DNA of 32,000 nucleotides from an uncultured bacterium. Lineage in GTDB: Bacteria; Margulisbacteria; WOR-1; CAVSGV01. Below the pieces are notes generated by a model. The model was given only the letters and a program-made list of their open reading frames with translations, was not told the DNA's origin and did no database searches. Within the stretch, counting starts at the first letter, position 1; each line of letters begins with the position of its first letter. The translations under genes were made by a program, and so were the position numbers. The stretch spans positions 990,001 to 1,022,000 of the forward strand of contig OY969425.1 in the NCBI GenBank assembly GCA_963699255.1, read 5' to 3'. Of the stretch, positions 9,805 through 32,000 are shown piece after piece.

Positions 9805-10306
9805 GAAGTGTGGTAGTTAGAGATTGGAAGTGGGTTATGAATTGTGATGTGGGATGTTTGATTGCATTCCTTGTCGACCAAAAACCATCCAGTTTCGCTT
9901 AAGGTTATAAAGTTGCTTTCCGGCAATTTCATAGGTATCTATAAGATAATTGCATAATTTGTCATCAATCCCATAAACATCCCTGCAAATCACTAAATGC
10001 GGGTTCATTTCATTGCATTCGCCCAGTGCGTCATCCAAATATTTCTTAAAAGCTCTCAATTGATGCTTTTTTGCATAGCCCTCCGCGATGAGTGCAGGTA
10101 TTGCTTTGCAGCATCGTCGCATTTGATCGCCGAGATCGAATTTTTCATAAGTCGGCAACCTTGGGATTAACTTTATTAAGGTTATCTTGGTTGCTTCAAG
10201 AACCCTTTGATAGACATTCAAATCCGTAAAACTTCTTATGCTTTTATTATTCACTTCCAACTTCTCAATTCCAAACTCATTTCCCATTTCCAAATATCCC
10301 ACTTCC
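9805..10306 (-). mobile_element. inverted-repeat-bounded cassette carrying a four-helix-bundle ORF (arms use the GGAAGTG motif)
   Basis: Arms at 9805-9856 and 10252-10306. For example, 9817-9833 ttagagattggaagtgg resembles the reverse complement of 10252-10268 (ttgagaagttggaagtg), and 9805-9813 pairs with 10298-10306. Mobility is inferred, not shown. Confidence 0.5.
9835..10302 (-). CDS. four-helix-bundle protein (23S rRNA intervening-sequence protein / Avd family)
   Basis: FTDLNVYQRVLEATKITLIKLIPRLPTYEKFDLGDQMRRCCKAIPALIAEGYAKKHQLRAFKKYLDDALGECNEMNPHL matches the family pattern as I recall it (L.VWQKA..L...IY..T..FP..E.F.L..Q.RRAA.SI..NIAEG......KE...FL.IA.GS..E). Both ends of the ORF are translated from the flanking repeat arms. 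The real start may be ATG 10287 or later. Confidence 0.8.
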   Translation of the reverse strand: MGYLEMGNEFGIEKLEVNNKSIRSFTDLNVYQRVLEATKITLIKLIPRLPTYEKFDLGDQMRRCCKAIPALIAEGYAKKHQLRAFKKYLDDALGECNEMNPHLVICRDVYGIDDKLCNYLIDTYEIAGKQLYNLKRNWMVFGRQGMQSNIPHHNS

Positions 10307-10311
10307 GCCTT

Positions 10312-10719
10312 TTACATATTGCTCAATTCAAGGAGTTCTGAAGATCCGTTCCTTTTATATCCGATCAGCTTGTACGATCCTGTCGAATCATCATAAACAT
10401 AAATGATCTTCCCGGCCTTATCCGATTCCGTATATGCCCTGCCTGTAAAGGGATTTATGGGCACCGAAGTGGCGTATCCGCCCTGGCTCAAATAATTATC
10501 ATACAGCTCTTTAAGCGATATGTTGCTTCCCATTGGATAGGCTTCATTTTCCATGTTATACGCCTCTACGGCGAGCTGGATCGAGTGCATGACGGCTTTA
10601 ACTCCTGTCTCCTTCGCCCTGTCCTGCACGCCGATGAAGTTCGGCATCATGAAAGCGGCGATGATGCTGATGATAGCTATTACCACCAATAATTCTATCA
10701 AGGTGAATGCTTTGCTCAT
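10312..10719 (-). CDS. type IV pilin / T2SS pseudopilin (GspG/PilA-like)
   Basis: MSKA|FTLIELLVVIAIISIIAAFMMPNF class III signal, plus a small alpha-beta pilin domain. GGAGG lies 7 nt upstream of ATG 10719. The ORF track starts one codon earlier, at TTG 10722. Confidence 0.88.
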   Translation of the reverse strand: MSKAFTLIELLVVIAIISIIAAFMMPNFIGVQDRAKETGVKAVMHSIQLAVEAYNMENEAYPMGSNISLKELYDNYLSQGGYATSVPINPFTGRAYTESDKAGKIIYVYDDSTGSYKLIGYKRNGSSELLELSNM

Positions 10720-10737
10720 CAATTAACCTCCTTCGAT

Positions 10738-11215
10738 AAATTACAAATCACAATTTACAAATTACAAACAAATTACAATTCACAACAAATAAACCATACA
10801 CAAATAACCATCAAGCCTTACTTAATATTGAAGAGAATATATTGCGCAATTCCCGCGATTCTTTATATAACTTATTGACTTCTTCTCCAATGTTCGGATT
10901 AGCTTCTTTTACTAATTCCAGCCAATAACTGCTCTCTTTTGCCTCTTTTCTTGTGATTCTCATCCTATGGACAAAATCTTTTTGACTTAAAGCTTCATTT
11001 GCTTCCCTGTAATTTGCCCCGACAGATCCGGCAGCCCTAACAAGCTGTCCTATTAATGTGAAATTAATTGTGTTTGCCGGCATTTTTTTGCATAATCTAA
11101 TTACGCATTTTGCATATTCCTAGGTTCTTTCCTCCAGATCAAATGGTTTTTTGTCGTTTTGATCATTGTAATTTGTATATTGTTTGTGATTTGTGTATTG
11201 TATATTGTGATTTAT
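10738..11215 (-). mobile_element. inverted-repeat-bounded cassette carrying a truncated four-helix-bundle ORF (arms use the ATTACAA/ACAAAT motif)
   Basis: Arms at 10738-10810 and 11164-11215. There are two perfect 11-bp complements: 10769-10779 caaattacaat with 11165-11175 attgtaatttg, and 10743-10753 acaaatcacaa with 11184-11194 ttgtgatttgt. Mobility is inferred. Confidence 0.5.
10811..11083 (-). CDS. four-helix-bundle protein (23S rRNA IVS protein / Avd family), 5'-truncated and possibly a pseudogene
   Basis: LIGQLVRAAGSVGANYREANEALSQKDFVHRMRITRKEAKESSYWLELV matches the second half of the family. Family-like sequence continues in frame upstream (EYAKCVIRLCKK) to a TAG at 11120-11122, which sits 8 nt after a GGAGG. 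Confidence 0.65.
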   Translation of the reverse strand: MPANTINFTLIGQLVRAAGSVGANYREANEALSQKDFVHRMRITRKEAKESSYWLELVKEANPNIGEEVNKLYKESRELRNIFSSILSKA

Positions 11216-14714: not shown

Positions 14715-15449
14715 ATGACGGTTGTTATGTCATTAGTCATTACAATATATGTACGCGAGGGCATCGTCATGGCCAGCGACAGCAGGCTGACCCTGAACGC
14801 CACGCAAAACCAGCCCGGCAGCCCTCAAATAGTGAATGTGGCGGTCGGACAAAGCGATACGGTATATAAAACTTTTTTGACCTCTAACAGGATCGGCATC
14901 TCAACTTTCGGCGCCGCGGATATCAAAGACGTACCGATCACCGGTTTTATGGAATCCTTCATAAACGACCACATCGCGCAAAAGAACGTAAGCCTTAACA
15001 ATGTGCCTCAGGAATTATTAAAATATTTCAGGAACATCTCCCCGGACCTCCAGATCGGCTTTCATGTAGCCGGCTATACATCGGCCAGCAACGTGCCGGA
15101 ACAAAGCGTCTGGGCGGTCGATGTTCACGGGAACGCTATCACCCGTCTTAATAAACCCGGGCAGCCCGGAGCATCCTGGGCGGGTGAAGCCGAGATACTG
15201 GCGAGGCTGATCAATCCGGTAAGGGTCGAGAACAGTCCAGGTAATTTTATCGATCTTCCTTTTGCCCAGATCCAGTTCGGATACTTTACCATACAGGATG
15301 CCGTTGATTTCGCCGTTTACGCGATAAGAACAACTATCGATTCTTTCAGGTTCCAACCCCGGCCCAAAACCGTCGGCGGGCCGATAGATATCCTGGTAAT
15401 AAGGCCGAACGAGGCTTTTTGGGTTCAGAGAAAAGAATTACACGCTTAG
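14715..15449 (+). CDS. proteasome beta-subunit-like Ntn hydrolase (Anbu/BPH/HslV-like), orphan
   Basis: The N-terminus M(TVVM)SLVITIYVREGIVMASDSRLT resembles HslV [22 protein letters not shown] and the Anbu-type ..GLVF.SDSRTNAG as I recall them. A downstream VYKTFL...IGISTFGAADI resembles the Lys33 / GxxG region. Start is either ATG 14715 (AAGGA 9 nt upstream) or in-frame ATG 14727, which the promoter geometry favours. Confidence 0.6.
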   Translation: MTVVMSLVITIYVREGIVMASDSRLTLNATQNQPGSPQIVNVAVGQSDTVYKTFLTSNRIGISTFGAADIKDVPITGFMESFINDHIAQKNVSLNNVPQELLKYFRNISPDLQIGFHVAGYTSASNVPEQSVWAVDVHGNAITRLNKPGQPGASWAGEAEILARLINPVRVENSPGNFIDLPFAQIQFGYFTIQDAVDFAVYAIRTTIDSFRFQPRPKTVGGPIDILVIRPNEAFWVQRKELHA

Positions 15450-15564
15450 ACAATATTTTTATGCTCCCTCGTCACAACTCCCTACAATTGTCGAATATCA
15501 CCACATCAATATAAGTCAATTAAACATAAAGCAATTGGAATAATAATTGCTTATCTCAATTTAC

Positions 15565-15951
15565 ATGTACATGAAACCCATTAAGAAAGTATTCGCAAGA
15601 CAGCTCAGAAGATACGAAACTAAAGCAGAAAAGATAATATGGAGACTTCTAAGAAATAGACGTTTTCAAGGGTTTAAATTCCGCCGACAGCATGTTGTAG
15701 AAGGTTTCGTAGCAGATTTTTGCTGTCATAAGCTCAAGTTTATTGTAGAAATTGATGGATGGGTTCATAAGAAGCAGAAAAGATATGACGAAATTCGGGA
15801 TATTATTTTGATGTCAAAAGGCTATTCAATTATCAGATTCAAGAATGAGGATGTCGTCGAAGATTTATCGAAAGTATGCCAAGATTTGGAGAACGCCCTC
15901 ACCCTAGCCCTCTCCCCGGGGGAGAGGAAAGCAAAACGAAAGCTATTCTGA
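15565..15951 (+). CDS. DUF559 / Vsr-like endonuclease domain protein
   Basis: ARQLRRYETKAEKIIWRLLRNRRFQGFKFRRQHVVEGFVADFCCHKLKFIVEIDGWVH...IIRFKNEDV is the DUF559 pattern (restriction-endonuclease-like fold). Start uncertain: TTG 15547, ATG 15565 or ATG 15571. Confidence 0.8.
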   Translation: MYMKPIKKVFARQLRRYETKAEKIIWRLLRNRRFQGFKFRRQHVVEGFVADFCCHKLKFIVEIDGWVHKKQKRYDEIRDIILMSKGYSIIRFKNEDVVEDLSKVCQDLENALTLALSPGERKAKRKLF

Positions 15952-15996: not shown

Positions 15997-17226
15997 CTAC
16001 TTTCCCTGATATACCGGGAACAAGATCCTTATATGTGAAACATCCTCCATCGCGGTATTCGCCCATCTCGGAAGCTGTTTGTTAAGCGACATGTGGTAAA
16101 CCGGCATCATTTCCCATCCTTCTTTACCTTTGTATTTGACCTCCACCAAAAATCTCTCGAGCAGCCGTTTTTCCCAATCAGGCTTTTCTATGTCATCTTC
16201 ACTATATCTTGGTTGAAGATAATACTTGAAAAACGGAGCCATTCCCTCAAAAGACTGATCGAGAGCGTTCAAGGGGCCTATCACCATCCACTGGGTGAGA
16301 GTGCGTGCCGTGATCATCTCCTTGCTCATCCCGTGGCCGGAGGGGATTATCTGGAACCCTCCGATCAGGCCGAGCGGGGAAGTGGCTATGCAAATTACCC
16401 CCGCGTGGTTCGCGCGTATTCGCCCGACATCGGCGTATTCGGAACCGAGGAACCTGCCAACTCCCTCTATCGGGCGCAGGACCTGTCCGATGTAACGCTG
16501 CTCCCCGTCAATATATTTGATGGTTATCAGCCCGCCGAACCTGTTCTCAAAAATGATCTCTTTCGGGTATCTCGCCGGCCTTTCGACATTGATCAAGATG
16601 ACATCCCCGATGCGGGGGATATATCCGGTCTTGAGCGGGTAAAGGTTCCCGCTTGAGTCGGAGGTGGACACCGTGTTGCCAACAAAAGGGGAATATCCTC
16701 CGCCGAATATGCCATGTCCTGCATTGATGTCCGTGTATATGGTGGCTTCCTGGCTTGTTCTCATTTTGGGATCGGCAGAGTAATCTTCTTTTGGAAGGAT
16801 GTTGAAGATAACGCCTTTATCATCGATCGAGTTGTAATCGGTCTTTATGTGGATGGCGTTCACGGCCGTAGCCGCAACGTCGCCGTCGTCGATCCACTTA
16901 GAAGCCGTATATCCCTGGTTGCTCACCATCTTAGCCGGAAGAATGACATGCCCGAGAGTTTTCCAGGTCTGGCCCTTATTTTCACTGACCTCGATCGATC
17001 CCCCTGCGGCGTTGGATATCCTGATCCTGTACATTTCCATCATCATGGGCCTGTTCTCCGGAGCTATTGATTCTGAGGTCCCGATAGTTTGGAGAGAAGA
17101 ATATGATTTACCCGCAAAAAACACTAAACCTGCGACTAAAGTCGCGGTTAAAGTCAAAATTATCCGAGACTTTACCCCAACACGTTGGTTGGGGTTTAGT
17201 TTCGGGGCATTTTTTTCATGTGGCAT
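15997..17226 (-). CDS. hypothetical protein with one Asp-box (BNR) motif
   Basis: Long ORF with codon usage like its neighbours. It has a SENKGQTW Asp-box (16963-16986). The first ~36 codons are translated from palindromic repeats at 17127-17205. An alternative start is the ATG triplet at 17046-17038 (MMMEMYRIR). Confidence 0.55.
   Translation of the reverse strand: MPHEKNAPKLNPNQRVGVKSRIILTLTATLVAGLVFFAGKSYSSLQTIGTSESIAPENRPMMMEMYRIRISNAAGGSIEVSENKGQTWKTLGHVILPAKMVSNQGYTASKWIDDGDVAATAVNAIHIKTDYNSIDDKGVIFNILPKEDYSADPKMRTSQEATIYTDINAGHGIFGGGYSPFVGNTVSTSDSSGNLYPLKTGYIPRIGDVILINVERPARYPKEIIFENRFGGLITIKYIDGEQRYIGQVLRPIEGVGRFLGSEYADVGRIRANHAGVICIATSPLGLIGGFQIIPSGHGMSKEMITARTLTQWMVIGPLNALDQSFEGMAPFFKYYLQPRYSEDDIEKPDWEKRLLERFLVEVKYKGKEGWEMMPVYHMSLNKQLPRWANTAMEDVSHIRILFPVYQGK
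17127..17205. repeat. element A (AACCTGCGACT-AA-AGTCGCGGTT) followed by element C split by a nested element B
   Basis: A occupies 17127-17149. CCGAGACT at 17164-17171 pairs with AGTTTCGG at 17198-17205. Between them, ACCCCAAC at 17174-17181 pairs with GTTGGGGT at 17188-17195. Confidence 0.75.
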
Positions 17227-17229
17227 CGG

Positions 17230-18729
17230 TCACAAGTTCTTGAAAAAATCAGCGAGAAGTCTTACGCCGAACCCCGTAGCACCGTTGCTGTTATACCCTG
17301 ATCCCTTTTCAAGATAAGCAGTGCCGGCGATATCTATGTGCGCCCAGGGAGTATCCTCCACGAACTTTTGAAGGAATATCCCCCCCACCGACGCGCTCGC
17401 TTTGCCTCCGCTCTCGGTGCAATTCATGATATCCGCGACATCGCTTTTCAGGTATTCCTTGTATTCCTCGTAAAGCGGAAGCCTCCAAAGTTTTTCGCCT
17501 GTCGTTTTAGAGGACCCTATGAGCTTCCCTACCAATTCATCGTCATTGCCCATTACCCCCGCAGCAGCATCACCCAGGGCGACCCGGCAGCCGCCGGTAA
17601 GTGTGGCTATGTCTATCAGTTTTTTTGCCCCGAGTTCCTTCGCGTACGCGATCGCATCGGCAAGTATCAATCTTCCTTCGGCATCCGTGGAGATGACCTC
17701 TATTGTCTTTCCGGACATGGAACCTATAACGTCCCCCGGCTTGTAAGCGTTCCCGCCAGGCATGTTCTCTGTCACCGGGATAACGGCGATCACGTTCACT
17801 TTCAGTTTAAGCCCGGATATGACTCTCATTACTTCTATTACGGTAGCGGCACCCGCCATGTCGGTCTTCATTTCAGCTAACTTAGAGGAAGGTTTAAGGG
17901 ATATCCCGCCGCTGTCGAAAGTTATACCCTTTCCGATCAATCCATAAGTTTCACTTTTCGCGCCGCCGCTGTATTTCAGGACTACAAGTTTTGGCTCTTC
18001 CTTTGATCCCCTTGATACGGAAAATAAGGCGTCCATGCCTTTTTTTATTATTTCATCCCTACCGAATACCTCGCAGGAGAGCTTCATTTCCTTTGCCATG
18101 GCTGCGGCATATTCCGCAAGATGGGTTGGAGTGTTCTTGTTAGAGGGGGAATTCACAAGGTCCCTTGCTTTGTTCGTGCTGTCCACAAGCACCTTTGCGA
18201 GTTCAACGCCGGGCTCTATCGACTTGATCTTTTCAGGGTCATAATCGACGATCACGAGCTCATCGACGACCGGTTCATCGTTTTCGATCTCGGTCTTAAA
18301 GCCCTTGAATTTGTATTCGCCAAGCAGCGACCCTTCCACAACAGATTGAGCAGCCCTCATAGGATCCAGGCCGCCGATCCCGGCTCCGTGTATGATGGTG
18401 GCGACCCTCTTTGCCCTGCATTTTTTTGCCGCTTTAATAGCGGCATCAGAAACTATCCTTACCTTGTCCAGATCAAAATCCCCGCTCTTGCCCAGCCCCA
18501 CGCAGATGACCTCATCCGCTTTTATCTTGCCGTATGTCTGGATCGGATACGTCGAGCCAAGCTTGCCGTTGATCGCCCCGCTGGCAAGAAGCTTCGATAT
18601 TTCTCCGCCCAGAGCTTTATCAACAGCGCCTGTCGCCCCGCCCGGATGCTTGACACCTTCAAATTCATTGACGATCAGGACATCGCACTTGCACTCGACC
18701 ACGGAAGCACATTCAAGTTTGATTTTCAT
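17230..18729 (-). CDS. pepA: leucyl aminopeptidase (M17 family)
   Basis: M17 signature NTDAEGRL-like STDAEGRLILADA, plus GKGITFDSGGISLKP. Start at ATG 18729 (MKIKLECAS), preceded by AAAGGA. The ORF-track extension to 18831 is read through palindromic repeats. Confidence 0.92.
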   Translation of the reverse strand: MKIKLECASVVECKCDVLIVNEFEGVKHPGGATGAVDKALGGEISKLLASGAINGKLGSTYPIQTYGKIKADEVICVGLGKSGDFDLDKVRIVSDAAIKAAKKCRAKRVATIIHGAGIGGLDPMRAAQSVVEGSLLGEYKFKGFKTEIENDEPVVDELVIVDYDPEKIKSIEPGVELAKVLVDSTNKARDLVNSPSNKNTPTHLAEYAAAMAKEMKLSCEVFGRDEIIKKGMDALFSVSRGSKEEPKLVVLKYSGGAKSETYGLIGKGITFDSGGISLKPSSKLAEMKTDMAGAATVIEVMRVISGLKLKVNVIAVIPVTENMPGGNAYKPGDVIGSMSGKTIEVISTDAEGRLILADAIAYAKELGAKKLIDIATLTGGCRVALGDAAAGVMGNDDELVGKLIGSSKTTGEKLWRLPLYEEYKEYLKSDVADIMNCTESGGKASASVGGIFLQKFVEDTPWAHIDIAGTAYLEKGSGYNSNGATGFGVRLLADFFKNL

Positions 18730-18753
18730 ATTGATCCTTTCACCTTCAATTCC

Positions 18754-18821
18754 GGAACCTGAGAGTAAAACTCTCGGTTCCTCTCTAATAAAAGGAACCG
18801 CGACTTTCAGTCGCAGGTTCC
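18754..18821. repeat. pair of short palindromic elements sharing a GGAACC/GGTTCC clamp (C-variant TGAGAGT..ACTCTCG; A: GCGACT-TTC-AGTCGC)
   Basis: 18754-18781 is ggaacctgagagtaaaactctcggttcc. 18794-18821 is ggaaccgcgactttcagtcgcaggttcc. Located between lemA and pepA, in the same C-then-A order as at 2259-2307. Confidence 0.75.
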
Positions 18822-18834
18822 AGGCTTCCACTAT

Positions 18835-19410
18835 CTAGAATTTCACCTTGGGAACTGCTTTTGCGGAAGGCGCGGCCTCAAAATACGGCTTCACCTTATC
18901 AAAACCGAATTTGTGAACAAAGAAAACCCCGGGGATCTTTTGCGCCGCGGTATTATACCTTTGAACGGATTCGTTATAACGCATCCTCTCGACCGCTATC
19001 CTGTTCTCCGTGCCGGCAAGTTCATCCTGAAGCCTTACAAAGTTCTCGCTGGCCTTTAAGTTCGGATAATTTTCCGCTATGGCTAGAAGTCTGGACAGAG
19101 CGGAATTCATCTCATTTGCCGCGACTATCTTATCCGCCTGCGACCCTATCTTTATTGCGCCGGCAAGCTTCGTGCGTGCCTCCGCGACCTGTATGAATAT
19201 GCTCTTTTCATGCTTCGCGTAGCCTTTCACGACCTCGACAAGGTTCGGTATAAGGTCATTCCTTCTCTGGAGCTGGTTCTCGACCTGCGCCCAGGATTGG
19301 ATCACGCTCTGATCGAGCCCGACAAAACTGTTATACATGCCGACAGTGATAAGTATCAGAACGATCAACACGCCGAGGACCCACACCCAAGGCTTATTCC
19401 ATTTTTCCAT
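18835..19410 (-). CDS. lemA: LemA family protein
   Basis: N-terminal TM helix, then SWAQVENQLQRRNDLIPNLVEVVKGYAKHE and YNTAAQKIPGVFF. GGAGG lies before ATG 19410. The ORF-track extension overlaps the Gly-rich tail of the upstream gene. Confidence 0.88.
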   Translation of the reverse strand: MEKWNKPWVWVLGVLIVLILITVGMYNSFVGLDQSVIQSWAQVENQLQRRNDLIPNLVEVVKGYAKHEKSIFIQVAEARTKLAGAIKIGSQADKIVAANEMNSALSRLLAIAENYPNLKASENFVRLQDELAGTENRIAVERMRYNESVQRYNTAAQKIPGVFFVHKFGFDKVKPYFEAAPSAKAVPKVKF

Positions 19411-19435
19411 ATTTATTCCTCCTCTAGAAGCTTCG

Positions 19436-20269
19436 TCAGAAGCTTCTTCCTGACCCTCCTCCGCCGCTTCGCCCTCCTCCAAATCCGCCGAATCCCCCTC
19501 CGCCGCCGAAACCTCCAAAGCCCCCTCCCCATCCGCCAAAACCGCCGTAATAGCCGCCCGTGGAAAAAAGGGCCCCTATCACGAACCCGAACAAAATACC
19601 GGCAACTCCGGCGACAAAAAATCCGACAACAGCCCCTATCAAACCGGAAACCAGAGCCCCTGTCAGCGTGCTGCCCAGGAACGCAATGATCCCGATCAAT
19701 ATTATAACAGAAAGAGCCAGCAAAACTGAATATATGTTCAGGTTGATCTGCTCAAGTTTTGACTGCGGCTTGTTCGAGTATTCCTTCATTATCCGGTCGT
19801 AAAACGCGAGGCTGGCCATGTACAATCCCCTGCCGTAGTTGCCATCTTTGAATTCGGAAAGGGCGTACTTATCGAGGACCTCGCCGGCGAAACCGTCGGT
19901 TATGACGCCTTCAAGGCCATAACCCACTTCAACTTCTACGCGGCGTTCTTTCTTGCTTTTCACCAGAAGTATGAGGAGCCCGTTGTCCTTTTCCTTCTTG
20001 CCTATTCCCCATTTTTCGAACAGCTGCGTCGCGTATGACTTTGAATCCAGAGGATATGTTGATTTTACGGTGACTACCGCCAGTTCAGCTCCGGTGTTCT
20101 CTTTCAGCTTGTCCGCAAGGACATCCAGTTTCGAGGAATTTGCCTGATCGATGACCTTTGCGAAATCATTCACGTATCCTGTGTAAGCGGGGAATTGGAT
20201 TTCCGCGCAGTAAGAGATGGTGGCCAGTGCCGCGATGAGCAGAAAGCTATTTAAGATCTTTTTCATCAA
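19436..20269 (-). CDS. TPM-domain protein (YgcG-like) with a TM segment and a Gly-rich tail
   Basis: Signal peptide, TPM-like YVNDFAKVIDQANSSKLDVLADKLKENTGAELAVVTV, C-terminal TM helices and a GGFGGWGGGFGGFGGGGGFGG tail. The pairing with lemA is common. Confidence 0.75.
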   Translation of the reverse strand: MMKKILNSFLLIAALATISYCAEIQFPAYTGYVNDFAKVIDQANSSKLDVLADKLKENTGAELAVVTVKSTYPLDSKSYATQLFEKWGIGKKEKDNGLLILLVKSKKERRVEVEVGYGLEGVITDGFAGEVLDKYALSEFKDGNYGRGLYMASLAFYDRIMKEYSNKPQSKLEQINLNIYSVLLALSVIILIGIIAFLGSTLTGALVSGLIGAVVGFFVAGVAGILFGFVIGALFSTGGYYGGFGGWGGGFGGFGGGGGFGGFGGGRSGGGGSGRSF

Positions 20270-23276: not shown

Positions 23277-23392
23277 AATTAACAATTTCTCAATTAACAA
23301 TTAACAACAAGGAAAAATTACAATTAAATTACTAATATAAGTCGCCGAAGGCGACACCCTGTTGTTCATTGTGTCATTGTTAATTGTTAATT
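23277..23392. repeat. cargo-less long inverted repeat (AATTAACAA motif) with a central GC hairpin
   Basis: 23292-23308 aattaacaattaacaac matches the reverse complement of 23376-23392 (aattaacaattaacaat) at 16 of 17 positions. The central hairpin is GTCGCC-GAA-GGCGAC at 23341-23355. It fills the argF-argG junction. Confidence 0.7.
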
Positions 23393-23397
23393 TATTT

Positions 23398-24333
23398 TCA
23401 GTCCTCCATCAATAACGCCAGTATCGCCTTTTGCACATGGAGCCGGTTCTCCGCCTGGTCAAAAACCACGGAATATTTGCTGTCCATCACGTCGCTCGTT
23501 ATCTCCTGTCCGCGGTGGGCAGGCAGGCAGTGCATCACTATAACGTCTTTTTTCGCCTTATTTACCAGGTTAAAATTGACCTGGAATTTCCTGAACGCCT
23601 TGATCCTTTTCGCCGTTTCTTTTTCCTGCCCCATGGATGTCCAGACATCCGTGTAGATGACATCCGCGCCGACGACCGCGTCGCTGGCGCTGTTCACTAT
23701 CTCTACGGCCGCCTTGGACTTCCTGGCATCTTCCCGCGCGACAGCCAGCAGCTTCTTATCCGGCTCATATCCTTTTGGGCACGCCGCTATGAATTCCATC
23801 CCCGTCTTGGCGCAGGCGGACATAAGGGAATGGCACACGTTATTGCCGTCCCCGATATAAGCCACCTTGACACCCCGGAGCTTTCCTTTTTTCTCCCATA
23901 TTGTGAACAGGTCGGATAACGCCTGGCATGGGTGGAGAAGGTCGGTCAGGCCGTTTATCACGGGGATCGACGCGTATCGCGCGAATTCAATGACGCTTTC
24001 ATGCGCAAAGGTGCGTATGACAACGCCGTCCACGTAGCGGGAAAGGGTCCTTGCTATGTCCGGCACGGATTCGCCCTTTCCGAAACGGAGTCCCGCGGCA
24101 TCCAGGTCGACGGCAAGCCCTCCGAGCTGCCACATCCCCACCACAAAAGAGACGCGGGTACGGTTCGACGGCTTGTCGAATATCATCGCGAGCGTTTTGC
24201 CTTTCAGAAGTTTGGGGGTTAAGCGTTTTTTTGCCCGATTTTTCATGAATTTCGCAAGGTTGAGGATCATCTGGACCTCTTCCTTTGAAAGGTCATGGAT
24301 GGCTATCAGGTCTTTATTTCGCAGTTTTGCCAT
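23398..24333 (-). CDS. argF: ornithine carbamoyltransferase
   Basis: SNRTRVSF carbamoyl-phosphate motif, HPCQ, DVWTSMG, and HCLPAHRGQE. Confidence 0.93.
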   Translation of the reverse strand: MAKLRNKDLIAIHDLSKEEVQMILNLAKFMKNRAKKRLTPKLLKGKTLAMIFDKPSNRTRVSFVVGMWQLGGLAVDLDAAGLRFGKGESVPDIARTLSRYVDGVVIRTFAHESVIEFARYASIPVINGLTDLLHPCQALSDLFTIWEKKGKLRGVKVAYIGDGNNVCHSLMSACAKTGMEFIAACPKGYEPDKKLLAVAREDARKSKAAVEIVNSASDAVVGADVIYTDVWTSMGQEKETAKRIKAFRKFQVNFNLVNKAKKDVIVMHCLPAHRGQEITSDVMDSKYSVVFDQAENRLHVQKAILALLMED

Positions 24334-24357
24334 AAAAACCCCCTTTAGGAAGACTCA

Positions 24358-24386
24358 AATATAGCATAAGGAAAGGGCGTTTTCAA
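24358..24386 (-). promoter_or_regulatory. sigma70-like promoter for argF-argG-argH: -35 TTGAAA, 17-nt spacer, -10 TATATT
   Basis: The minus strand reads TTGAAAacgccctttccttatgcTATATTtgagtcttcctaaaGGGGGtttttATG. The hexamers lie at 24386-24381 and 24363-24358. Confidence 0.5.
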
Positions 24387-24388
24387 AT

Positions 24389-24553
24389 AAGGCAAGGCAC
24401 ATGATGGCAAAGGAAGGCAAAAGAAGATGTTGAAGATTATAAGGCTTAAGGCTTGGGGCAAAACAATAAATTCAAAAGCCTTACGCCTTAAGCCTTGTAC
24501 CTTAAGCCCTTATACTGCCATCAATCGCCATCCTTTGCCATTTTTTGCCTTTT
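24389..24553. repeat. cargo-less doubly nested inverted repeat (outer GGCAAAGG motif, inner AAGGCTTAAGG motif)
   Basis: The outer pair 24404-24414 atggcaaagga and 24531-24541 tcctttgccat is perfect over 11 bp. The inner pair 24441-24451 aaggcttaagg and 24486-24496 ccttaagcctt is also perfect over 11 bp. Confidence 0.7.
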
Positions 24554-24622
24554 TTTTGACAAAAATAATTGCTCAAAAAATGAAATTTTCAGGCCGACTT
24601 GACGATATAAAGGCAGAAAATA

Positions 24623-24696
24623 ATAAGCCCGTTTTGGAGACTCAAGCGCTCCCCTCTAAAACCTCAGATGCTTGATCCCTTCGGGCTTATTTTTTT
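24623..24696. terminator. long-stem structure with flanking T/A runs; candidate bidirectional intrinsic terminator after the giant gene
   Basis: ATAAGCCCG at 24623-24631 pairs perfectly with CGGGCTTAT at 24682-24690 and encloses a partly self-complementary 50 nt. TTTTTT follows on the plus strand (24691-24696), and ttattttct follows on the minus strand. Confidence 0.3.
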
Positions 24697-24761
24697 GCCC
24701 AGAAAAACCTTATTGCGCGGGTAATATTATTCCGGAAGGAAGAGATGGGGAGTTCTTGAGG

Positions 24762-27700
24762 CTAAGGTATCACCCTGTAAACTTTTTTCGGGATCGTTTC
24801 ATCTTGAACGGCTGTATAAACAGGGAGGTTGGCGGCGACATTCTTGCCGATGACCTCATCAAACTCTTTTTGCATCATCTTTCCGGCAATATCAGCGTCA
24901 ATTTGGGTGATAGCATTTTTTCCGTCTGTGCCCAGCATCTTGTTTATCGCGAGGGACATCACCTCAACGAACTTTGATTCCGGCAACTTATCAAGCTGAT
25001 AAGTGGGCATGCTCGTTAAAAGGTTCGCCCTTTTCTGAACGACGATCCCGTATTTACCCATTGCCTGCTGTAAAACCCCCGCCTTGTCCAGAAGATCCGT
25101 GACCTGCCTATATAATGCCTTGCACTGACGCAAATATTTAAGGTCTATGGTCATTGAATTGCTTGCGATATCGTTCAATTTAATGACGCTTACCGTGTAG
25201 TCGGACAACAGCAATCTGGCCAGTTCGGGGCTGAAATATATGCTTTTGCTGAACCCCTCGTTTCCTACCGCCTGGCAATCAATGTAATTCGGCTTGAACA
25301 CGCCTTGCGCGACCTTGTCATTGATATAATCGTGAAGCGCCGCCTTGATCATTATTCTCGTCTTATATTCTTCCGTGTAATCAGCATATATCACGGCATA
25401 ATTCTCTCCTGATTTCGAGATATAATTGATCTTGTTCCCAACTTTCTTCAAATAACCCAGTTCAAGAAGGACGCCAGCTATGTCCTGCTGAAGATTCGGC
25501 GAATTCTTGAACTCCTGGCTCTCTATGCCGAATCCCATCGGCAGTTCTTTTAACGCCTCTTTTGTATTCGCGATATCTGAAAGGTTTTTCTTTGTGCCCC
25601 AGTTCTCTTGCGGACCCAGATCCTGAGACAGCAAAAGAAGGCTGACTGTGGCTCCAAGGGTCTTTAAGGCGCCGTTAAAGAGCACCGCCGATACCACTCT
25701 CCATTCAAGCGCCGTCCCGACGGCTCCAACAATTCCCTGTACAACGGGGCTTTTGAACTTGCCTGCGATTATTTCTGCGGGATTATATTCTCTGTCGATC
25801 TCTGAGGCCATAAGGCCCATTTGAACGACCGGGTTATCCACTACCGCTGTGAATTTTTCGCTTAGCCACTTGCCGCCATCTTCACCTTTCTGTTGGAGTA
25901 TTAAGCCAAGGCCTAAAGCAAATCCGTCCTTTATATATTCCAGGTATCCGGGTACGTGTATTTTTGACGCGATATACATGGGCGTCGTAAACCCTGCTAT
26001 ACCGCCGACGCCTTTAACCACATCTTCCGGTGTCTTCCAGGTGCGGAAATTTTGATAAACGTAAGTGAAGTTAGAGCCTTTTCCCGAAGAAAGTCCTCCT
26101 GCCGCTTCAACAAGCTTTGTTGTTCCGTAGAATAACGTCAACCCTGCAAAGCCACCGGCGGCATCCTTCAGTATGATCATTCCGTCTACTTTCTCACCTT
26201 TTGCCAACTTGGCCAACTCGTTCACCATTGTCCCGACTACAACGAACATCGCTGCCGCGGCTCCGAAAGTCTTAATTTCTGTTATTGCTTTATCCCCTAA
26301 AGTCGTTACATCATTCCATTTTCCGTTTTCTATGTCAGGAGTGTATTTCCAGACCCTGTTGTTCTCTGTTTTCTTGTAGTACACTCCGTCCTTTTCAAAT
26401 AAGGTCACTTTCCCCAGCGGATTGCCCTTTGAATCGAATTCATGCAGCAAGCCGTCTTCTCCCATCCTTATATTTCTTGGCGCTTTGCTATCCTTAATGA
26501 TATCAACTTTCACGCCGTTGGTTCCTTCGACCATCTTCGCCACTCTGCCGTCCGTTGTAACGACGCAAAAGGCGGGTTTACCGGTTACGCCTTTTACGTT
26601 CGGGGCTTTACCAATCCCGTTCATTTCGATCTGCTTTGCCATAAGATGGATATTTTCTTCATTCAATAATGTTATTTCCGAGGGATTCAGCTGCGTGTTG
26701 CCTTCGAACGAGAGATTTATCTCCGTGTTCCCGCGGAGATGCGTTTCCGCAGTCTCATGAAGCATGGCTTTTATCAGTTTTGAGTTGCCAAAGCCTCTAT
26801 AGAACACCCTTATCAGCCTGTCAAGGCAGCTCTTTTGAAAGACCGTTTCTTTAAGGTATATGGTGCATTTGCCATTTTCGTCGATCCTATATACAGCATC
26901 TCCCGGCGTATCGCCCCAACCCTCCTTAGAAACTTTCTTAAATTTAATCGATTCGCCGTCCCTGATCTTTTCTTCCATGCCTTTAAAGAGAAGATTTTTG
27001 CTTTTTAGTGTTTCAATGACCTCGTCTATCTTCGCCTGTTCATAGCTGTTAACATCGGTACTGTTCGATTTGTTTATAATGGCGTCGATCTCATCTTTGG
27101 TCACTTCCGCTCCCGCCTGCGAGCCGCCCACATTATTGATCCTTTGCTCGGGGAGCCGGATCTTCTGTCCAACTTTGATCTTGGTGGAGTCTTTGATCTC
27201 AGGGTTAAGTTCAAGCAGTTTTTTTACCGTTGTTCCATACTTTCTGGCAATGGACCACATCCTGTCCCCATCTACAACTGTATAGATATTATCTGCGACT
27301 GCTGGCCCCAAATTCGCGTGAACATTATCCTTTTGCTTTATATCAGCTTCCTTTTTATTAACGTCATCGGAATTTGTGTCGGCTTTTTTCTCCTGCTTTA
27401 TTCCGGTCGTCTTCTTTTCAGAGTCCCCCGGCTTTGTACTCAACTTGCTCTTCGTTTCTTCTTTTGATTTTTCCGTGGACGCGGTTTTTTGCTCCGGATT
27501 AATTTCCGTCTTTTTATTAATAGGTTTGTCCTTTTCAACTTTTTTCTCGTTCGGATTAGGATCGTTCTTTGTTCCCGTTCCTGTTGGTTCATTCTTCTGT
27601 GCCGGCTCCGGGGTCTTTCTCCCGAAGACTTTTTTGACAGTTTTCCCGCTCCAGGACAACCCGCGGCCGATCAAAGCATTGTATCTGCCTTTCCTGATCC

Positions 27701-30137
27701 GTGGCATTATTTCGCTGAGCTTTATGCCTTCGATCAGCAATATTTTATCCGCCGCGGACTGCTGCACGAACCGTCTCACATCGGGGATCTGCTGGCCGAT
27801 GATGTTCTCGCATATGGATTCGTAGATCATGTTGCAGGCCTCAGGATCGCCGTTAGCTGATTCGAATTGATCTGGGTAATATTGCTTGATCTCCTCGATA
27901 GGATAAAGATCCTTGCTGTGCTCATAGATGGAACGCATTGTTTTGTTATATACTTTTTCTTGTATGGAATTCCTCCACTTCCTGTGGGGCTGCATAACAT
28001 CATAATTGAAAGCTCTTGCCGGATTATCCAGTTTGAACTGTAAGATTTGAACTCTGACAAGATTTAAAAAATCCTCGCCTGTCATCCTCAGTACCGGGAC
28101 ACCCTCATCGTTCGTCATGGTTATGAGCTTGTTCCTCTTGCTGTATTTGCAATAATCAGCGGCAAGGTCCAGGTTCTGAAGGAATTCCCGTTCCTTCATG
28201 ACTGCTACGGATTTGCGATCGACCTCATTCGCTTTGTTCAGGATCCCTTCAAGCTCGGCGGTCTTCATCCCTTTCTTGACTTTTTCGCCGCTCGCCCGCA
28301 GACTTTCGACAAGCGCCTTTTTTTCCTGCGGGGTGACATTTTTTGCCAGCCAGTCGGAAACCGCCCCTCCCATCGCGTCCTTGACCGCCCCTTTATACTT
28401 GGGATCCAGGGCGATCTTTATGATATCGCTGCTTGTGAGAATGACGGATTTGGCGGCTTTTGCCCGGGACCGATTAAAAAGTTCATATATCGCTTTTATC
28501 TCATTTTTCGCTGCCCGGGAAAGTTTCTGTTGCGTTGAAGAAAAGATCCCCAAAAGTTCGATCCTTTCAAGTTCGCTCATTTCCCCTTTAATCGCGAGGG
28601 TCTTGGTCGCGTCATCGTACCTGTATGTATCCGCGTGTGAGGCGATAAATTTATCCAGCATGTCATTTTTGGTGACCTTTACAGCGGCTTCTCCGTTCTT
28701 TTGTACAAGATTGATCTGGAATTCCTTGTCAAACTTCTTGTCGGCAAGGGCGGTCTTTATCATGCCTTCGAAAGCATCGTCCCCATCTTCGATACTGGGG
28801 GCTTCGGAAATGATCTCGCTGTCCATTTTATTGAAATCATCCAGGAATTCCTTTTGAGCGGAGGTCAAACCGCGCAATCCGCGCAATACCCTGGAGATAT
28901 TCTTTATCAGATCGTAGGGGTGAATAGAATAATCCACTGCCTGATTAAGCTTGTTCAATCCCCAGGAAGTCCCGTTTATCGCTTTGTCCAGGCCTGTAGA
29001 AGCTGATCTCTCGGCGGGATCCGCGACAAGGCGGCTGGCTGGTATCTCCTGCCATTCGATATCGAATCCCTCGAACGATTTACGGGACTGGGTTATTCTT
29101 CGGGCTCCCCGGTCGTAATAGCTTTTAGCCAATTGATAAAGCCCCATGGTCGCAATGTAAGCAAAGTACAGGTCAATGCCCCCGGCAGTGACATTTTTCC
29201 TTTTCAAGTTCTCATAGGCATCCTTCAGCAAGGCATATGGATTTAAGCGGAAGGCCTCCAGGCTGACCCTGTTATTTACAAGTGACCTTAATAATTCCAG
29301 CCCGTCGGATAAAGCGCTGCCATCCCCATGTATGGCGGCTATTATCAGCTGCGGCAGTTGAGCCACTAATGCGGTCTGGGTCTGGATGCTGATCATCGGG
29401 GTCATGGCAAAATTAAGAGAAAGATACTGATCGATCATATCTTCAGCTTGGTCCAGGCTCGTCCATCCAAATCCGCGCGGTAGATCTCCCGATTTGTCCT
29501 CATTGATCGTAAAGGAGGTCGGTTCCCGTAAATCCTGATGCAGCAACTCGATGTCGCCCGAACTTTGCCCCGAAAGTTTGTTCAAGACCGCCCCGATATT
29601 GAAAGGAGCTTCCGACACTCTGGACAGGTCCTGGTCCATGGGGACAAAATAGCGGGAGAAGAATTTGAGGGCTTCCGCGGTCGTATTATCCAGACCGGAA
29701 AAAAGGTTCATATATGTAAGGTCGTATTCCTCGGATCCATCCATTTCTTTCGCTCCATAATTAAGGTCGGCCGCATATCCCATCAGCTCGCCGAATTTGT
29801 CCTGGGTCTTGAATTCGTACCCTGAAGACTCAAAGGACTCGATCAACTCCTTTTGCTTATTCGGGGCATTCTTATATTTTCCCAGGAATGTACTAAGGAG
29901 AAAACCCGCGCGGTCCACGATCTTTTTATTCACCTTTTCGTTGTTCAGGCTTATTCCTTTGCCCCATTTCATATAATCGCTTTCGATGAGGTATCCTTTT
30001 AAGACCAGGGCATAAGGATAGGTGGTGCTGCCATTGACCATCATGTTCACTGTTTTTTCGGCCGCGTTCAGGTTCTTCTTGACCCGACCGTTGCAGCTTT
30101 CTTCCCCCGGGTCCCACTGCAGGATGGCGGTTTGCAA
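24762..30137 (-). CDS. giant orphan protein (1791 aa): helical N-terminal half, K/E/T-rich disordered linker, LysM domain, cluster of Gly/Ala-rich TM helices
   Basis: Uninterrupted 5.4 kb ORF. LysM motif YTVVDGDRMWSIARKYGTTVKKLLELNPEIKDSTKIKVGQKIRLP (27150-27284). Low-complexity linker at about 27285-27625. Hydrophobic cluster at about 25621-26290 (FGAAAAMFVVVGTMV, GGFAGLTLFYG, GGIAGFTTPMYIA, GFALGLGLIL, GIVGAVGTALEWRVVSAVLF, LGATVSLLLL). No N-terminal signal peptide. Start is TTG 30137 (70 nt overlap with the upstream ORF) or ATG 30044, 24 nt after the upstream stop. Confidence 0.7.
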   Translation of the reverse strand: MQTAILQWDPGEESCNGRVKKNLNAAEKTVNMMVNGSTTYPYALVLKGYLIESDYMKWGKGISLNNEKVNKKIVDRAGFLLSTFLGKYKNAPNKQKELIESFESSGYEFKTQDKFGELMGYAADLNYGAKEMDGSEEYDLTYMNLFSGLDNTTAEALKFFSRYFVPMDQDLSRVSEAPFNIGAVLNKLSGQSSGDIELLHQDLREPTSFTINEDKSGDLPRGFGWTSLDQAEDMIDQYLSLNFAMTPMISIQTQTALVAQLPQLIIAAIHGDGSALSDGLELLRSLVNNRVSLEAFRLNPYALLKDAYENLKRKNVTAGGIDLYFAYIATMGLYQLAKSYYDRGARRITQSRKSFEGFDIEWQEIPASRLVADPAERSASTGLDKAINGTSWGLNKLNQAVDYSIHPYDLIKNISRVLRGLRGLTSAQKEFLDDFNKMDSEIISEAPSIEDGDDAFEGMIKTALADKKFDKEFQINLVQKNGEAAVKVTKNDMLDKFIASHADTYRYDDATKTLAIKGEMSELERIELLGIFSSTQQKLSRAAKNEIKAIYELFNRSRAKAAKSVILTSSDIIKIALDPKYKGAVKDAMGGAVSDWLAKNVTPQEKKALVESLRASGEKVKKGMKTAELEGILNKANEVDRKSVAVMKEREFLQNLDLAADYCKYSKRNKLITMTNDEGVPVLRMTGEDFLNLVRVQILQFKLDNPARAFNYDVMQPHRKWRNSIQEKVYNKTMRSIYEHSKDLYPIEEIKQYYPDQFESANGDPEACNMIYESICENIIGQQIPDVRRFVQQSAADKILLIEGIKLSEIMPRIRKGRYNALIGRGLSWSGKTVKKVFGRKTPEPAQKNEPTGTGTKNDPNPNEKKVEKDKPINKKTEINPEQKTASTEKSKEETKSKLSTKPGDSEKKTTGIKQEKKADTNSDDVNKKEADIKQKDNVHANLGPAVADNIYTVVDGDRMWSIARKYGTTVKKLLELNPEIKDSTKIKVGQKIRLPEQRINNVGGSQAGAEVTKDEIDAIINKSNSTDVNSYEQAKIDEVIETLKSKNLLFKGMEEKIRDGESIKFKKVSKEGWGDTPGDAVYRIDENGKCTIYLKETVFQKSCLDRLIRVFYRGFGNSKLIKAMLHETAETHLRGNTEINLSFEGNTQLNPSEITLLNEENIHLMAKQIEMNGIGKAPNVKGVTGKPAFCVVTTDGRVAKMVEGTNGVKVDIIKDSKAPRNIRMGEDGLLHEFDSKGNPLGKVTLFEKDGVYYKKTENNRVWKYTPDIENGKWNDVTTLGDKAITEIKTFGAAAAMFVVVGTMVNELAKLAKGEKVDGMIILKDAAGGFAGLTLFYGTTKLVEAAGGLSSGKGSNFTYVYQNFRTWKTPEDVVKGVGGIAGFTTPMYIASKIHVPGYLEYIKDGFALGLGLILQQKGEDGGKWLSEKFTAVVDNPVVQMGLMASEIDREYNPAEIIAGKFKSPVVQGIVGAVGTALEWRVVSAVLFNGALKTLGATVSLLLLSQDLGPQENWGTKKNLSDIANTKEALKELPMGFGIESQEFKNSPNLQQDIAGVLLELGYLKKVGNKINYISKSGENYAVIYADYTEEYKTRIMIKAALHDYINDKVAQGVFKPNYIDCQAVGNEGFSKSIYFSPELARLLLSDYTVSVIKLNDIASNSMTIDLKYLRQCKALYRQVTDLLDKAGVLQQAMGKYGIVVQKRANLLTSMPTYQLDKLPESKFVEVMSLAINKMLGTDGKNAITQIDADIAGKMMQKEFDEVIGKNVAANLPVYTAVQDETIPKKVYRVIP

Positions 30138-31990
30138 ATTCTTTTCCCCAGCGTTATGGGGTTCTTTATGGTCTTGTATTCATTTCCCACCTGGATCTTG
30201 AGATCTTTAAGGCGCTGATCATCATTGACGTTAAAATACAGGCTGTTAAAGACTATCCCTTTATCTTTCATCTTCTGCGCAAGGCTGTTCAGGAATTCCT
30301 TCGGATTATCAAGCGCCCACTGCTCGTTCTTTTGGTCCGCCTTTTCAGATTTGGTCCCTATCATGGCGTTCACGGCGGCGGGCGTCAGGTATCCTTCATA
30401 GTTTTTGACGAATGCCTGTATAAAATCCCAGCCTATGCTGATGGAGCTTTCGCCCTGAAAGTAATCTTTATCCTTTGCGTGGCACGGCTTATCATCATTT
30501 TCAGCGAAGAACGTTCCATTTTTTTTCGCTTCGACTTCTTTCTTGAACAGGATCTCCTTTAATCCTATCACCCTGGTATTATCCACAGCTTCCAGGGCTT
30601 TTCGGTTGGCGGGCGTCGGCATTGTTAAAAGGGAATAATGGATAGGGTCCCACAAAAAGTCATATACGAGCTTCTGCCATATGCTCTTACTGCCCTTTTG
30701 ACCGCCTTCCTTTGCCGCTTTCCTTTGGGCCTCCTGATCAGCGATGTACTCTCTTTCTTGTTTGGGCTCCGCCTCCTGGGTGACGCGTGAGATAACGTTA
30801 TATAGCCGCCTTAAGATAATTAGGACCTGGTTGGCTTCCTCCGTGGCCTCCACATCTTCGGTCTCCCCGTTCTTTAAAATGACCGATTCATTCGCATTTT
30901 TGATCATGTCCTCATCAATGTAAAATCTTCCATCCTGCACATAATCCGCCACCCTGTTTATGGCACGAATTTGGTTCGGGTCAAGCTGCTGCTTATAAGG
31001 GCTGTTACTGGCGAGCTTATCCTGCCAGTTGGCCAACGCTCTTAAATAGGCCGGAGATAGATAATCTGTCCCTTCTATCGTCAAAGTTTTGCCTTTCATA
31101 TGTATAGGATTAGGCGCGTAGCCCTGATCAGCAAGATAGAGCATTATGCTGAGTATCGGCAGTTCTTCGACAACTTCATGGTGATCCTTATCGGGATTCA
31201 ATGATATTGTATTTATATTGTCCCCTGATATTATCTTCCATGTCTTTTTGACAACTTTTTTGACAATAGGTTCCCTGACGATCTTATATCCCGGCGCCGC
31301 CTTGTCCTGCTCATTTTTATTTTCCGATATGTGGGACATGTTCGCATTTTCGGAAAGCAGTGACTGGGCCATGGTCCCGTCTATCACAAGATATTCCTTT
31401 TCCTGTTGATCCTTTATGAGCGGGACATCCTTCAGGGACGCGTAATTTTTTGTCATTACCCCCAGAATTTGATCGGCAGCCGATAAAAGGCTGTTTTGAT
31501 CCAGCTTTTCAGCTGAAGAAAGGCCCAATTCATCTATCAGTTGCTGGGCAATGAACCCCCCGAGTTCCGAGATCTTCGCGATCTTCTTCTTCTTTTCCTC
31601 CAGATCCATCTGATTATTTTTGATTATCTGCAAATTGCATCCAATATTGAATTTGATGTTCAATTCCTGTGCGTTCAAATTCATGATCTGACCGTTCACC
31701 TGCTTGTTGATGAAAGCCTCATATTGCTTAAGGTAAGCTTGCATGGCTTTCTCGTCTATCGTTCCCCCATCTTTCTTGGCGGACGCCCGCAACTCTTTTT
31801 CCTTTGCGTCCTTTTGCTTTTCCGCGGCATCTTTTTGCTTCTTTATTTCATTTTTTATGTTGGCACTCTGTGTTTGAATGTTCGCCAGATATTCATCGTT
31901 CTCTTTGCGTGTGCGGTCCAGCTGCCCAAGGACTTCGTCAAGGTTTTCTTGAGATATTTTCTTTATTTCCGCGACTATAGATCCCTGCAT
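30068..31990 (-). CDS. large orphan protein (at least 640 aa) with a coiled-coil K/E/Q-rich N-terminus; possibly 5'-incomplete
   Basis: Long ORF on the same strand as the 1791 aa gene and directly upstream of it. The N-terminus has heptad-like KNEIKKQKDAAEKQKDAKEKELRA. The three codons upstream of ATG 31990 are also open (I-K-Y), so the gene may extend past the window. Confidence 0.6.
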   Translation of the reverse strand: MQGSIVAEIKKISQENLDEVLGQLDRTRKENDEYLANIQTQSANIKNEIKKQKDAAEKQKDAKEKELRASAKKDGGTIDEKAMQAYLKQYEAFINKQVNGQIMNLNAQELNIKFNIGCNLQIIKNNQMDLEEKKKKIAKISELGGFIAQQLIDELGLSSAEKLDQNSLLSAADQILGVMTKNYASLKDVPLIKDQQEKEYLVIDGTMAQSLLSENANMSHISENKNEQDKAAPGYKIVREPIVKKVVKKTWKIISGDNINTISLNPDKDHHEVVEELPILSIMLYLADQGYAPNPIHMKGKTLTIEGTDYLSPAYLRALANWQDKLASNSPYKQQLDPNQIRAINRVADYVQDGRFYIDEDMIKNANESVILKNGETEDVEATEEANQVLIILRRLYNVISRVTQEAEPKQEREYIADQEAQRKAAKEGGQKGSKSIWQKLVYDFLWDPIHYSLLTMPTPANRKALEAVDNTRVIGLKEILFKKEVEAKKNGTFFAENDDKPCHAKDKDYFQGESSISIGWDFIQAFVKNYEGYLTPAAVNAMIGTKSEKADQKNEQWALDNPKEFLNSLAQKMKDKGIVFNSLYFNVNDDQRLKDLKIQVGNEYKTIKNPITLGKRICKPPSCSGTRGKKAATVGSRRT

Positions 31991-32000
31991 ATATTTAATG

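Follow-up and report, generated by a model that had tools for sequence, protein, structure and literature searches.

Positions 24762-32000 of the 32,000-nucleotide (nt) stretch analysed here (the window; contig OY969425.1 of an uncultured Margulisbacteria bacterium) very probably contain the 3′ part of one giant chromosomal gene on the minus strand, perhaps half or more of that gene, and not two consecutive open reading frames (ORFs) without relatives, as had been described in the initial annotation of this DNA. The two-gene orphan appearance most likely resulted from an assembly artefact combined with the insensitivity of the searches. On balance, the product of this one split gene is best explained as a giant, fast-evolving, lineage-specific envelope protein tethered to peptidoglycan, with a putative function.

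The window was compared with L001, an independent Logan contig of the same organism that was reached via P0001, the sole word-index match; the whole 1,791-amino-acid (aa) ORF returned only this self match. The features relevant to the reading frame are the following.

24762-32000, minus strand: portion of the giant gene lying in the window; with the L001 extension, 2,526 codons or more
24762-30137, minus strand: ORF of 1,791 codons
30068-31990 and beyond, minus strand: second ORF, open at the window edge
30068-30137, minus strand: overlap of the two called ORFs, 70 nt, out of frame
30136-30138, minus strand: T-run with the ORF-splitting 1-nt indel, TTT in the window and TTTT in L001
29487, 30108, 30136-30138 and 30198 (indels) and about 28899 (substitution): sites that differ between the window and L001
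24617-24696, minus strand: likely terminator of the giant gene, with 15-nt hairpin arms of 93% complementarity and, after them on this strand, a stretch rich in T

L001 was 99.94% identical to window positions 23367-32000 (8,635 nt) and extended 343 nt past position 32000 on the upstream side of the gene. All 16 combinations of the four indel variants were checked for an open frame, and only the window sequence supplied with the extra T of L001 gave a single uninterrupted frame, so that the two overlapping, out-of-frame ORFs became one. The merged frame spans at least 2,526 codons, from base 3 of L001, with its 343-nt extension included, to the stop at 24762-24764. It was still open at the 5′ end of L001 and the gene start was not reached, in agreement with the earlier suggestion that the upstream ORF may continue beyond the window; the lack of a signal peptide noted at that time carries no weight, because the true N-terminus lies outside the window. 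When the upstream frame was instead read past the T-run, it gave ICKPPSCSGTRGKKAATVGSRRT followed by a stop, a sequence dissimilar to the remaining protein.

The window and L001 differed by four 1-nt indels and one substitution, two of the indels adjoining GATC, one lying in CCCGGGGG and one in the T-run. These differences look like methylation- or homopolymer-linked long-read basecalling errors, and the 1.77 Mb length of the source contig makes a long-read assembly very likely. All of them fell within about 1.3 kb of the 8.6 kb aligned. In all likelihood, the ORF split is a simple assembly error of a single base in the T-run. Programmed −1 frameshifting at the junction was also considered, but no canonical X XXY YYZ heptamer was present in frame and a read error was preferred. 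In the related metagenome-assembled genome (MAG) L003 (MFD03726.bin.2.164), the genes argF, argG and argH all appear as sets of shorter ORFs (2009-2945, 3001-4110 and 4855-5577); these breaks are of the same error type and warn about the gene calls in long-read MAGs of this lineage.

A genuine frameshift, either in a decaying pseudogene or between two real genes, with the ORFs as relics of the family, was judged improbable. It would fit the frame breaks that both assemblies carry in the same 700-nt stretch, the separate 1,760-aa coding sequence annotated in the public record and a GGGGA Shine-Dalgarno-like motif 8 nt before the TTG at 30137; it would also suit the visible part, which has no SecA module (see below), and the nearest relatives L002 and L003, where the gene is missing beside argF and may thus be dispensable. 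However, the assemblies disagree at every break, and 1-nt indels at homopolymers or GATC are a read-error signature like that splitting the arg genes of L003. Further, one correction restored 2,526 codons with no other stop, whereas decay would scatter stops, and the core of the protein is well conserved, all invariant residues included.

The relatives of the protein were obtained by an exhaustive HMMER phmmer search with its last 782 aa against 1.84 billion representatives, in which five sequences were matched at E-values from 9.5e-122 to 5.6e-7, with identities of 29-48% over up to about 480 aa. The protein is thus not an orphan.

P0002: 578 aa, 48% identity, fragment, LysM present
P0003: 4,207 aa, 38% identity, full length
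P0004: 4,436 aa, 33% identity, full length
P0005: 4,056 aa, 29% identity, full length
P0006: 3,369 aa, 30% identity, full length

The conserved stretch corresponded to query aa 1-495, that is, the region after the LysM domain and the Gly/Ala-rich helices. The N-terminal approximately 1,650 aa visible here matched nothing, and among the relatives the N-terminal halves are common only to P0003 and P0006. The homologues are single ORFs. Word-index searches with the N-terminal 845 aa and with the core alignment returned nothing, not even the known members. When either the upstream ORF or the core alignment was run against GTDB genomes and JGI metagenomes, the result was equally empty. P0005 (MFA5103800.1) comes from a Candidatus Margulisiibacteriota MAG, and nothing resembling the family was mentioned in the literature found on Margulisbacteria or under the terms looked up in the main genome paper (PMC6349859). 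The window gene is read as the local orthologue of a very small, fast-evolving family found in Margulisbacteria-like bacteria, and the explanation of which this is part is rated, as a whole, slightly above even. A practical warning follows from this case: through single-base errors of long reads, combined with word-index searching, a single conserved gene took on the appearance of two orphans, and it is annotated in this form in the public record.

The C-terminal part of the protein, on which the envelope assignment is based, was resolved into the following features.

27288-27620, minus strand: K/E/T/P-rich low-complexity spacer of about 110 aa, preceding LysM
27150-27284, minus strand: LysM domain (PF01476), aa 952-996, Pfam 53.9 bits against a cutoff of 20.9
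27108-27134, minus strand: NNVGGSQAG element, start of the family-wide core in the alignments
26619-27098, minus strand: alpha/beta subdomain with an invariant H-E-x-x-E
26739-26759, minus strand: HETAETH motif
26646-26648, minus strand: invariant His, 36 residues past the first His, on the next helix
26310-26573, minus strand: beta-hairpin-rich subdomain of about 90 aa
25623-26300, minus strand: Gly/Ala-rich helical module of about 210 aa, conserved in all five homologues
26211-26267 and 25629-25733, minus strand: marginally hydrophobic segments
24765-25622, minus strand: C-terminal helical domain of about 286 aa, ending in VYRVIP

The LysM domain was recovered exactly where the initial annotation had placed it, with a match covering profile positions 1-43 of 43, and LysM chains in the PDB matched it down to E = 1.7e-13. 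The K/E/T-rich spacer before it was likewise borne out (K+E of 29 per 100 aa) and has no counterpart in the homologues. Beyond LysM, no match was obtained by Pfam (four pieces, E ≤ 5), PHROG, NCBIfam or PDB sequence searches, as had been anticipated, the PHROG and NCBIfam matches being confined to the LysM segment. A profile search against the PDB also gave nothing meaningful beyond LysM, PADLOC yielded a single match, to the GajA ATPase and below threshold (E = 0.0052, 13.3 bits), and no internal repeats were found in the protein. Among the relatives, LysM is present in P0002 and absent from P0003-P0006; relative to the GGxQAG element, its position is N-terminal in the window protein and C-terminal in P0002. 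The occurrence of LysM at two positions of the same junction suggests, at the level of sequence, that this junction works next to peptidoglycan, and the LysM domain together with its differing positions is the reason for the envelope reading. A GG(A/S)xAG-like sequence with two invariant Gly (G56 and G60; alignments A1 and A2) occurs in all members. This element stands where the variable N-terminal part gives way to the conserved core and resembles a double-glycine processing site; that it serves as one is pure speculation.

Similar to LysM-anchored wall hydrolases (DipM, NlpD, MltD, LytE and P60-type), the window protein carries a LysM domain beside a putative hydrolytic domain, and its LysM segment matches theirs. 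The similarity is however restricted to LysM, and the window protein has at least 2,526 aa without M23, NlpC/P60, SLT or amidase domains or a signal peptide. The putative hydrolytic domain is the alpha/beta subdomain, in which H121, E122, E125 and H158 were invariant columns of alignment A4, besides several further invariant Gly, Leu and Trp. An AlphaFold2 model of the alpha/beta and beta-hairpin domains (predicted local distance difference test, pLDDT, 68.6; predicted template modelling score, pTM, 0.56) showed three strands followed by helices at 99-112, 115-130 and 154-167, laid out as a three-stranded sheet, the HExxE helix, the invariant-His helix and a stack of hairpins. The zincin fold consists of a mixed sheet, an active-site helix and a further helix with the third ligand. 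The predicted small sheet, the H-E-x-x-(E) helix and the invariant His on the next helix thus resemble SprT/Wss1-like minimal zincins, and the top two matches in a Foldseek search of BFVD were SprT-like proteins (E = 1.2e-3 and 5.6e-2, with a template modelling (TM) score of about 0.16). From the motif, the model and these weak matches, the domain is tentatively regarded as zincin-like and possibly catalytically divergent. The hairpin strands (183-270) were predicted at a pLDDT of about 57-84 per 10-residue block, and none of their Foldseek matches, which were to folds of the beta-hairpin repeat, lectin and choline-binding kinds, was significant; this domain is kept in P0002-P0005 and missing in P0006.

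The Gly/Ala-rich module was predicted as long helices (pLDDT 45-60). Instead of the at least five hydrophobic transmembrane helices initially reported, only three overlapping or adjacent segments reached a Kyte-Doolittle value of at least 1.5 (1.5-1.63), and a crude Hessa-scale sum of +3.5 to +5.2 was marginal. The module is therefore marginal for membrane spanning and, by its sequence, appears more like amphipathic or glycine-zipper helices. For the C-terminal domain, the C-terminus profile of P0004 and P0005 weakly matched merged aa 2398-2474 (12.5 bits, E = 2.4e-6 for a single target), and phmmer and tblastn also matched it at E of about 0.01-0.03. The relatives end in VRVIPMITP and VRVVPMITP, compared with VYRVIP in the window protein. 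The AlphaFold2 model of the 842-aa C-terminal part had a pLDDT of only 44 and its PDB Foldseek matches were meaningless, so the structure prediction and Foldseek check that had been recommended was usable for the alpha/beta-hairpin piece, with its weak SprT-like matches, and unusable for the 842-aa piece.

Further, a SecA_DEAD domain was detected in mid-protein of all four full-length relatives, two of which also matched P-loop_SecA. The motor is of genuine SecA type, consists of NBD1, a PPXD-like region and NBD2 without the scaffold and wing domains, and lies 800-1,400 aa before the core; the module of P0006 matched E. coli SecA residues 95-386 at E = 1.3e-39. The GxGK[TS] and DExD motifs were kept in three of the four motors, while P0005 has GYGKS but DEP for motif II. 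In the visible part of the window protein, GLSWSGKT at merged aa 1561 was tried as a Walker A motif, and was judged a chance match with a disordered spacer following directly.

SecA-DEAD-domain giant proteins have been described in Omnitrophota and Actinobacteriota (West-Roberts et al., 2023, 10.1101/2023.11.21.568195; Nielsen and Lui, 2026, 10.64898/2026.06.07.730766), and self-export and wall-directed functions were proposed for those of Omnitrophota (West-Roberts et al., 2023). The relatives of the window protein share with them very long single ORFs, a divergent SecA motor without scaffold or wing, and C-terminal hydrophobic segments, and are likewise domain-dark, fast-evolving and from uncultivated bacteria. 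However, they are about 10 times smaller (3.4-4.4 against more than 30 thousand aa), belong to a different phylum, Margulisiibacteriota, and are syntenic with an arg operon instead of a type II secretion system-like locus. They do not combine the more than 30,000 aa, SecA_DEAD, many transmembrane segments and enzyme or dockerin sets of the Omnitrophota type; SecA domains and few hydrophobic segments were found, whereas the sets of enzyme, dockerin or TSP3 domains by which the published classes are defined were missing. The window gene itself showed no SecA module in its visible part.

By analogy, the C-terminal module may be exported by the protein's own SecA-like motor. In such a mechanism, the N-terminal helical bulk and the motor would stay cytoplasmic, and the motor would pass what follows it in its own polypeptide through the inner membrane. 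In this sub-lineage, LysM would be exported as well and would then tether the zincin-like and beta-hairpin domains to peptidoglycan, with the Gly/Ala-rich helices holding the protein at or in the membrane, and the outcome would be a lineage-specific device for envelope remodelling or cell contact. The specific proposal of a compact self-exporting protein of about 4-5 thousand aa, whose embedded SecA-derived motor moves a signal-less wall-binding/peptidase module in cis, was given only a small probability. Giant proteins with embedded SecA-like motors were noticed only recently, in the Omnitrophota preprints, where the role of the motor is unexplained. The present locus is a much smaller version at a fixed chromosomal position in a different phylum among the sister lineages of Cyanobacteria, with a conserved C-terminal core that carries a peptidoglycan anchor in some members. 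It is of clonable size and offers the testable prediction that the LysM and HExxE module farther along the chain is the cargo of the motor. If self-export is true, the SecA domains of the giants of 30-150 thousand aa from uncultivated bacteria could be studied in this small, syntenic family of Margulisbacteria, which would make a tractable model.

Several observations weigh against this envelope reading and its export step. No SecA-like domain was found in the visible 2,526 aa by Pfam (E ≤ 5), a family hidden Markov model, hhalign or motif scans, so that the motor either lies farther upstream, in a gene longer than those of the relatives and with a longer spacer, or has been lost. No convincing transmembrane segment was found to separate the N-terminal part from LysM, and with hydrophobic segments that are themselves marginal, any topology is tentative. 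The invariant motif is H-E-x-x-E and not the canonical HExxH of zincins; besides the low TM-score with the SprT-like proteins, the sequence profiles were negative and a PDB Foldseek search with the alpha/beta and hairpin model gave no match below E = 0.1. In the two closest GTDB genomes, L002 and L003, whose arg proteins are 80-89% identical to those of the window, no trace of the giant gene was found in the 1.9 kb upstream of argF. In addition, L001 carries three further frame-breaking indels, which leave some room for the real pseudogene weighed above.

The same features could belong to a secreted or injected effector or toxin, of which the whole protein, or a C-terminal fragment freed at the GG element, leaves the cell; LysM would dock on the target wall, the zincin-like domain would cleave proteins of the wall or surface, and the amphipathic helices, which resemble glycine zippers, would form a pore in the target membrane. 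The absence of a signal peptide from every full-length relative, the conserved GxxxG-rich motifs and a marginal hydrophobicity like that of pore-forming toxins needing solubility are in line with this, and the N-terminal halves diverge very fast compared with the 54-72% identity of the housekeeping neighbours, as is typical of conflict or contact proteins. SecA-domain giants have also been tied to prey adhesion and cell-wall attack (West-Roberts et al., 2023). Nevertheless, toxin, colicin, Rhs and type VI or type VII secretion markers were not found, no immunity-like gene comes next on the same strand, and no dedicated secretion genes are conserved beside the gene in the relatives. The arrangement of a conserved C-terminal and a variable N-terminal part is moreover the reverse of that in polymorphic toxins. 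An effector is consequently considered unlikely, though not negligible, and the peptidoglycan-tethered envelope protein is preferred.

The genomic context of the gene was then compared among the relatives. Downstream of the giant gene and on the same strand, the window encodes argF, argG, argH, ndk, a TPM-domain gene, LemA and a pepA-type (M17) aminopeptidase, and farther away metG, tatD, a GspF/PilC-like gene, a prepilin gene and an Opp-type ABC importer, with pilMN-pilO-pilQ on the opposite strand; the window is the ordinary chromosome of a diderm bacterium. The four contigs L083, L084, L088 and L089 showed the same co-directional order, namely the giant gene, one small gene and then argF-argG-argH-ndk-TPM-LemA-pepA. 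Since the gene order is identical and the arg proteins are only 54-72% identical to those of the window, the locus is old and orthologous. The giant gene had been described as sitting next to pilus genes; the nearest pilus-type genes are in fact at least about 12.5 kb away, behind housekeeping genes, and none was found within 10 kb in the loci of the relatives.

This context also bears on an origin from a mobile element. The analogues suggested earlier were tape-measure-like proteins of phages and wall-breaching proteins of conjugation; polyvalent proteins belong to the same reading. Tape-measure and polyvalent proteins are characterised by great length, helical bulk, occasional LysM or peptidase modules and hydrophobic segments, and the size, helical bulk, LysM, possible metallopeptidase and hydrophobic segments of the window protein resemble some of them; on contig L082, moreover, AbiE and Fic genes come after the giant gene. 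Yet nothing related to the conserved C-terminal 782 aa was found among 50,697 phage records, 72,556 plasmids or the IMG/VR collection, and the PHROG matches cover LysM only, with no tape-measure match. The neighbours are housekeeping genes whose order has been kept despite deep divergence; genes for an integrase, tail, capsid, relaxase or type IV secretion were not found in the window, and the GC content is similar to that of the remainder of the window. The tape-measure analogy is further at odds with the arg, ndk and pepA neighbours, and the conjugation or type IV secretion analogy with the lack of a lytic transglycosylase or NlpC domain and with the chromosomal context. A mobile-element protein is hence extremely improbable. 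Of the earlier proposal, the general idea of a giant envelope- or peptidoglycan-associated protein stands by virtue of LysM, while its specific analogues do not.

In L082, the genes after the giant gene (16261-19750) are an AbiEii/AbiEi toxin-antitoxin pair and a Fic/HATPase gene, and not the arg operon. Upstream of the giant genes of the relatives, a conserved ORF of 72-87 aa and one of 594-781 aa without assigned function were observed (L084 4691-9996; L085 7882-9949; L082 602-3388), which were 34-49% identical between L084 and L085 and were preceded by SNF-transporter and LPG_synthase_C genes. These ORFs may encode partners of the giant protein and would be off-window here. On its upstream side, the P0004/P0015 giant gene is covered for only about 400 nt in each of three independent assemblies (L083 1-462, L088 1-408 and L089 1-422), although one of these is a contig of 200 kb, which hints at a repeat or hypervariable stretch there.

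Between the giant gene and argF, a nested imperfect inverted repeat was found at 24389-24551, with outer arms at 24394-24418 and 24527-24551 (84% complementary) and inner arms at 24438-24459 and 24478-24499 (82%). A promoter-like site of argF follows closely at 24386-24358, and the repeat may serve as a regulatory hairpin or represent a small repeat element. An intergenic ORF of 82 aa on the plus strand (24427-24675), called on L001 by Logan's gene caller, overlaps these repeats, has no Pfam match on record and is probably spurious.

In the remainder of the window, no tRNA or Rfam elements were found. On the plus strand, PilM and PilN are fused in a 538-aa ORF (625-2241), and a PilQ-like secretin carries N-terminal TPR repeats and an STN domain (3140-4963). 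On the minus strand (9835-11083), two genes of the 23S-rRNA-intervening-sequence type (155 and 90 aa) flank the prepilin-like gene at 10312-10722. Window positions 10012-10236 are matched, too, by the product of the truncated gene with which L082 begins (bases 2-442). Finally, a 244-aa ORF without a family match and a DUF559 endonuclease-like gene lie on the opposite, plus strand (14715-15951) between metG and a 409-aa ORF, and this pair may be a small insertion.

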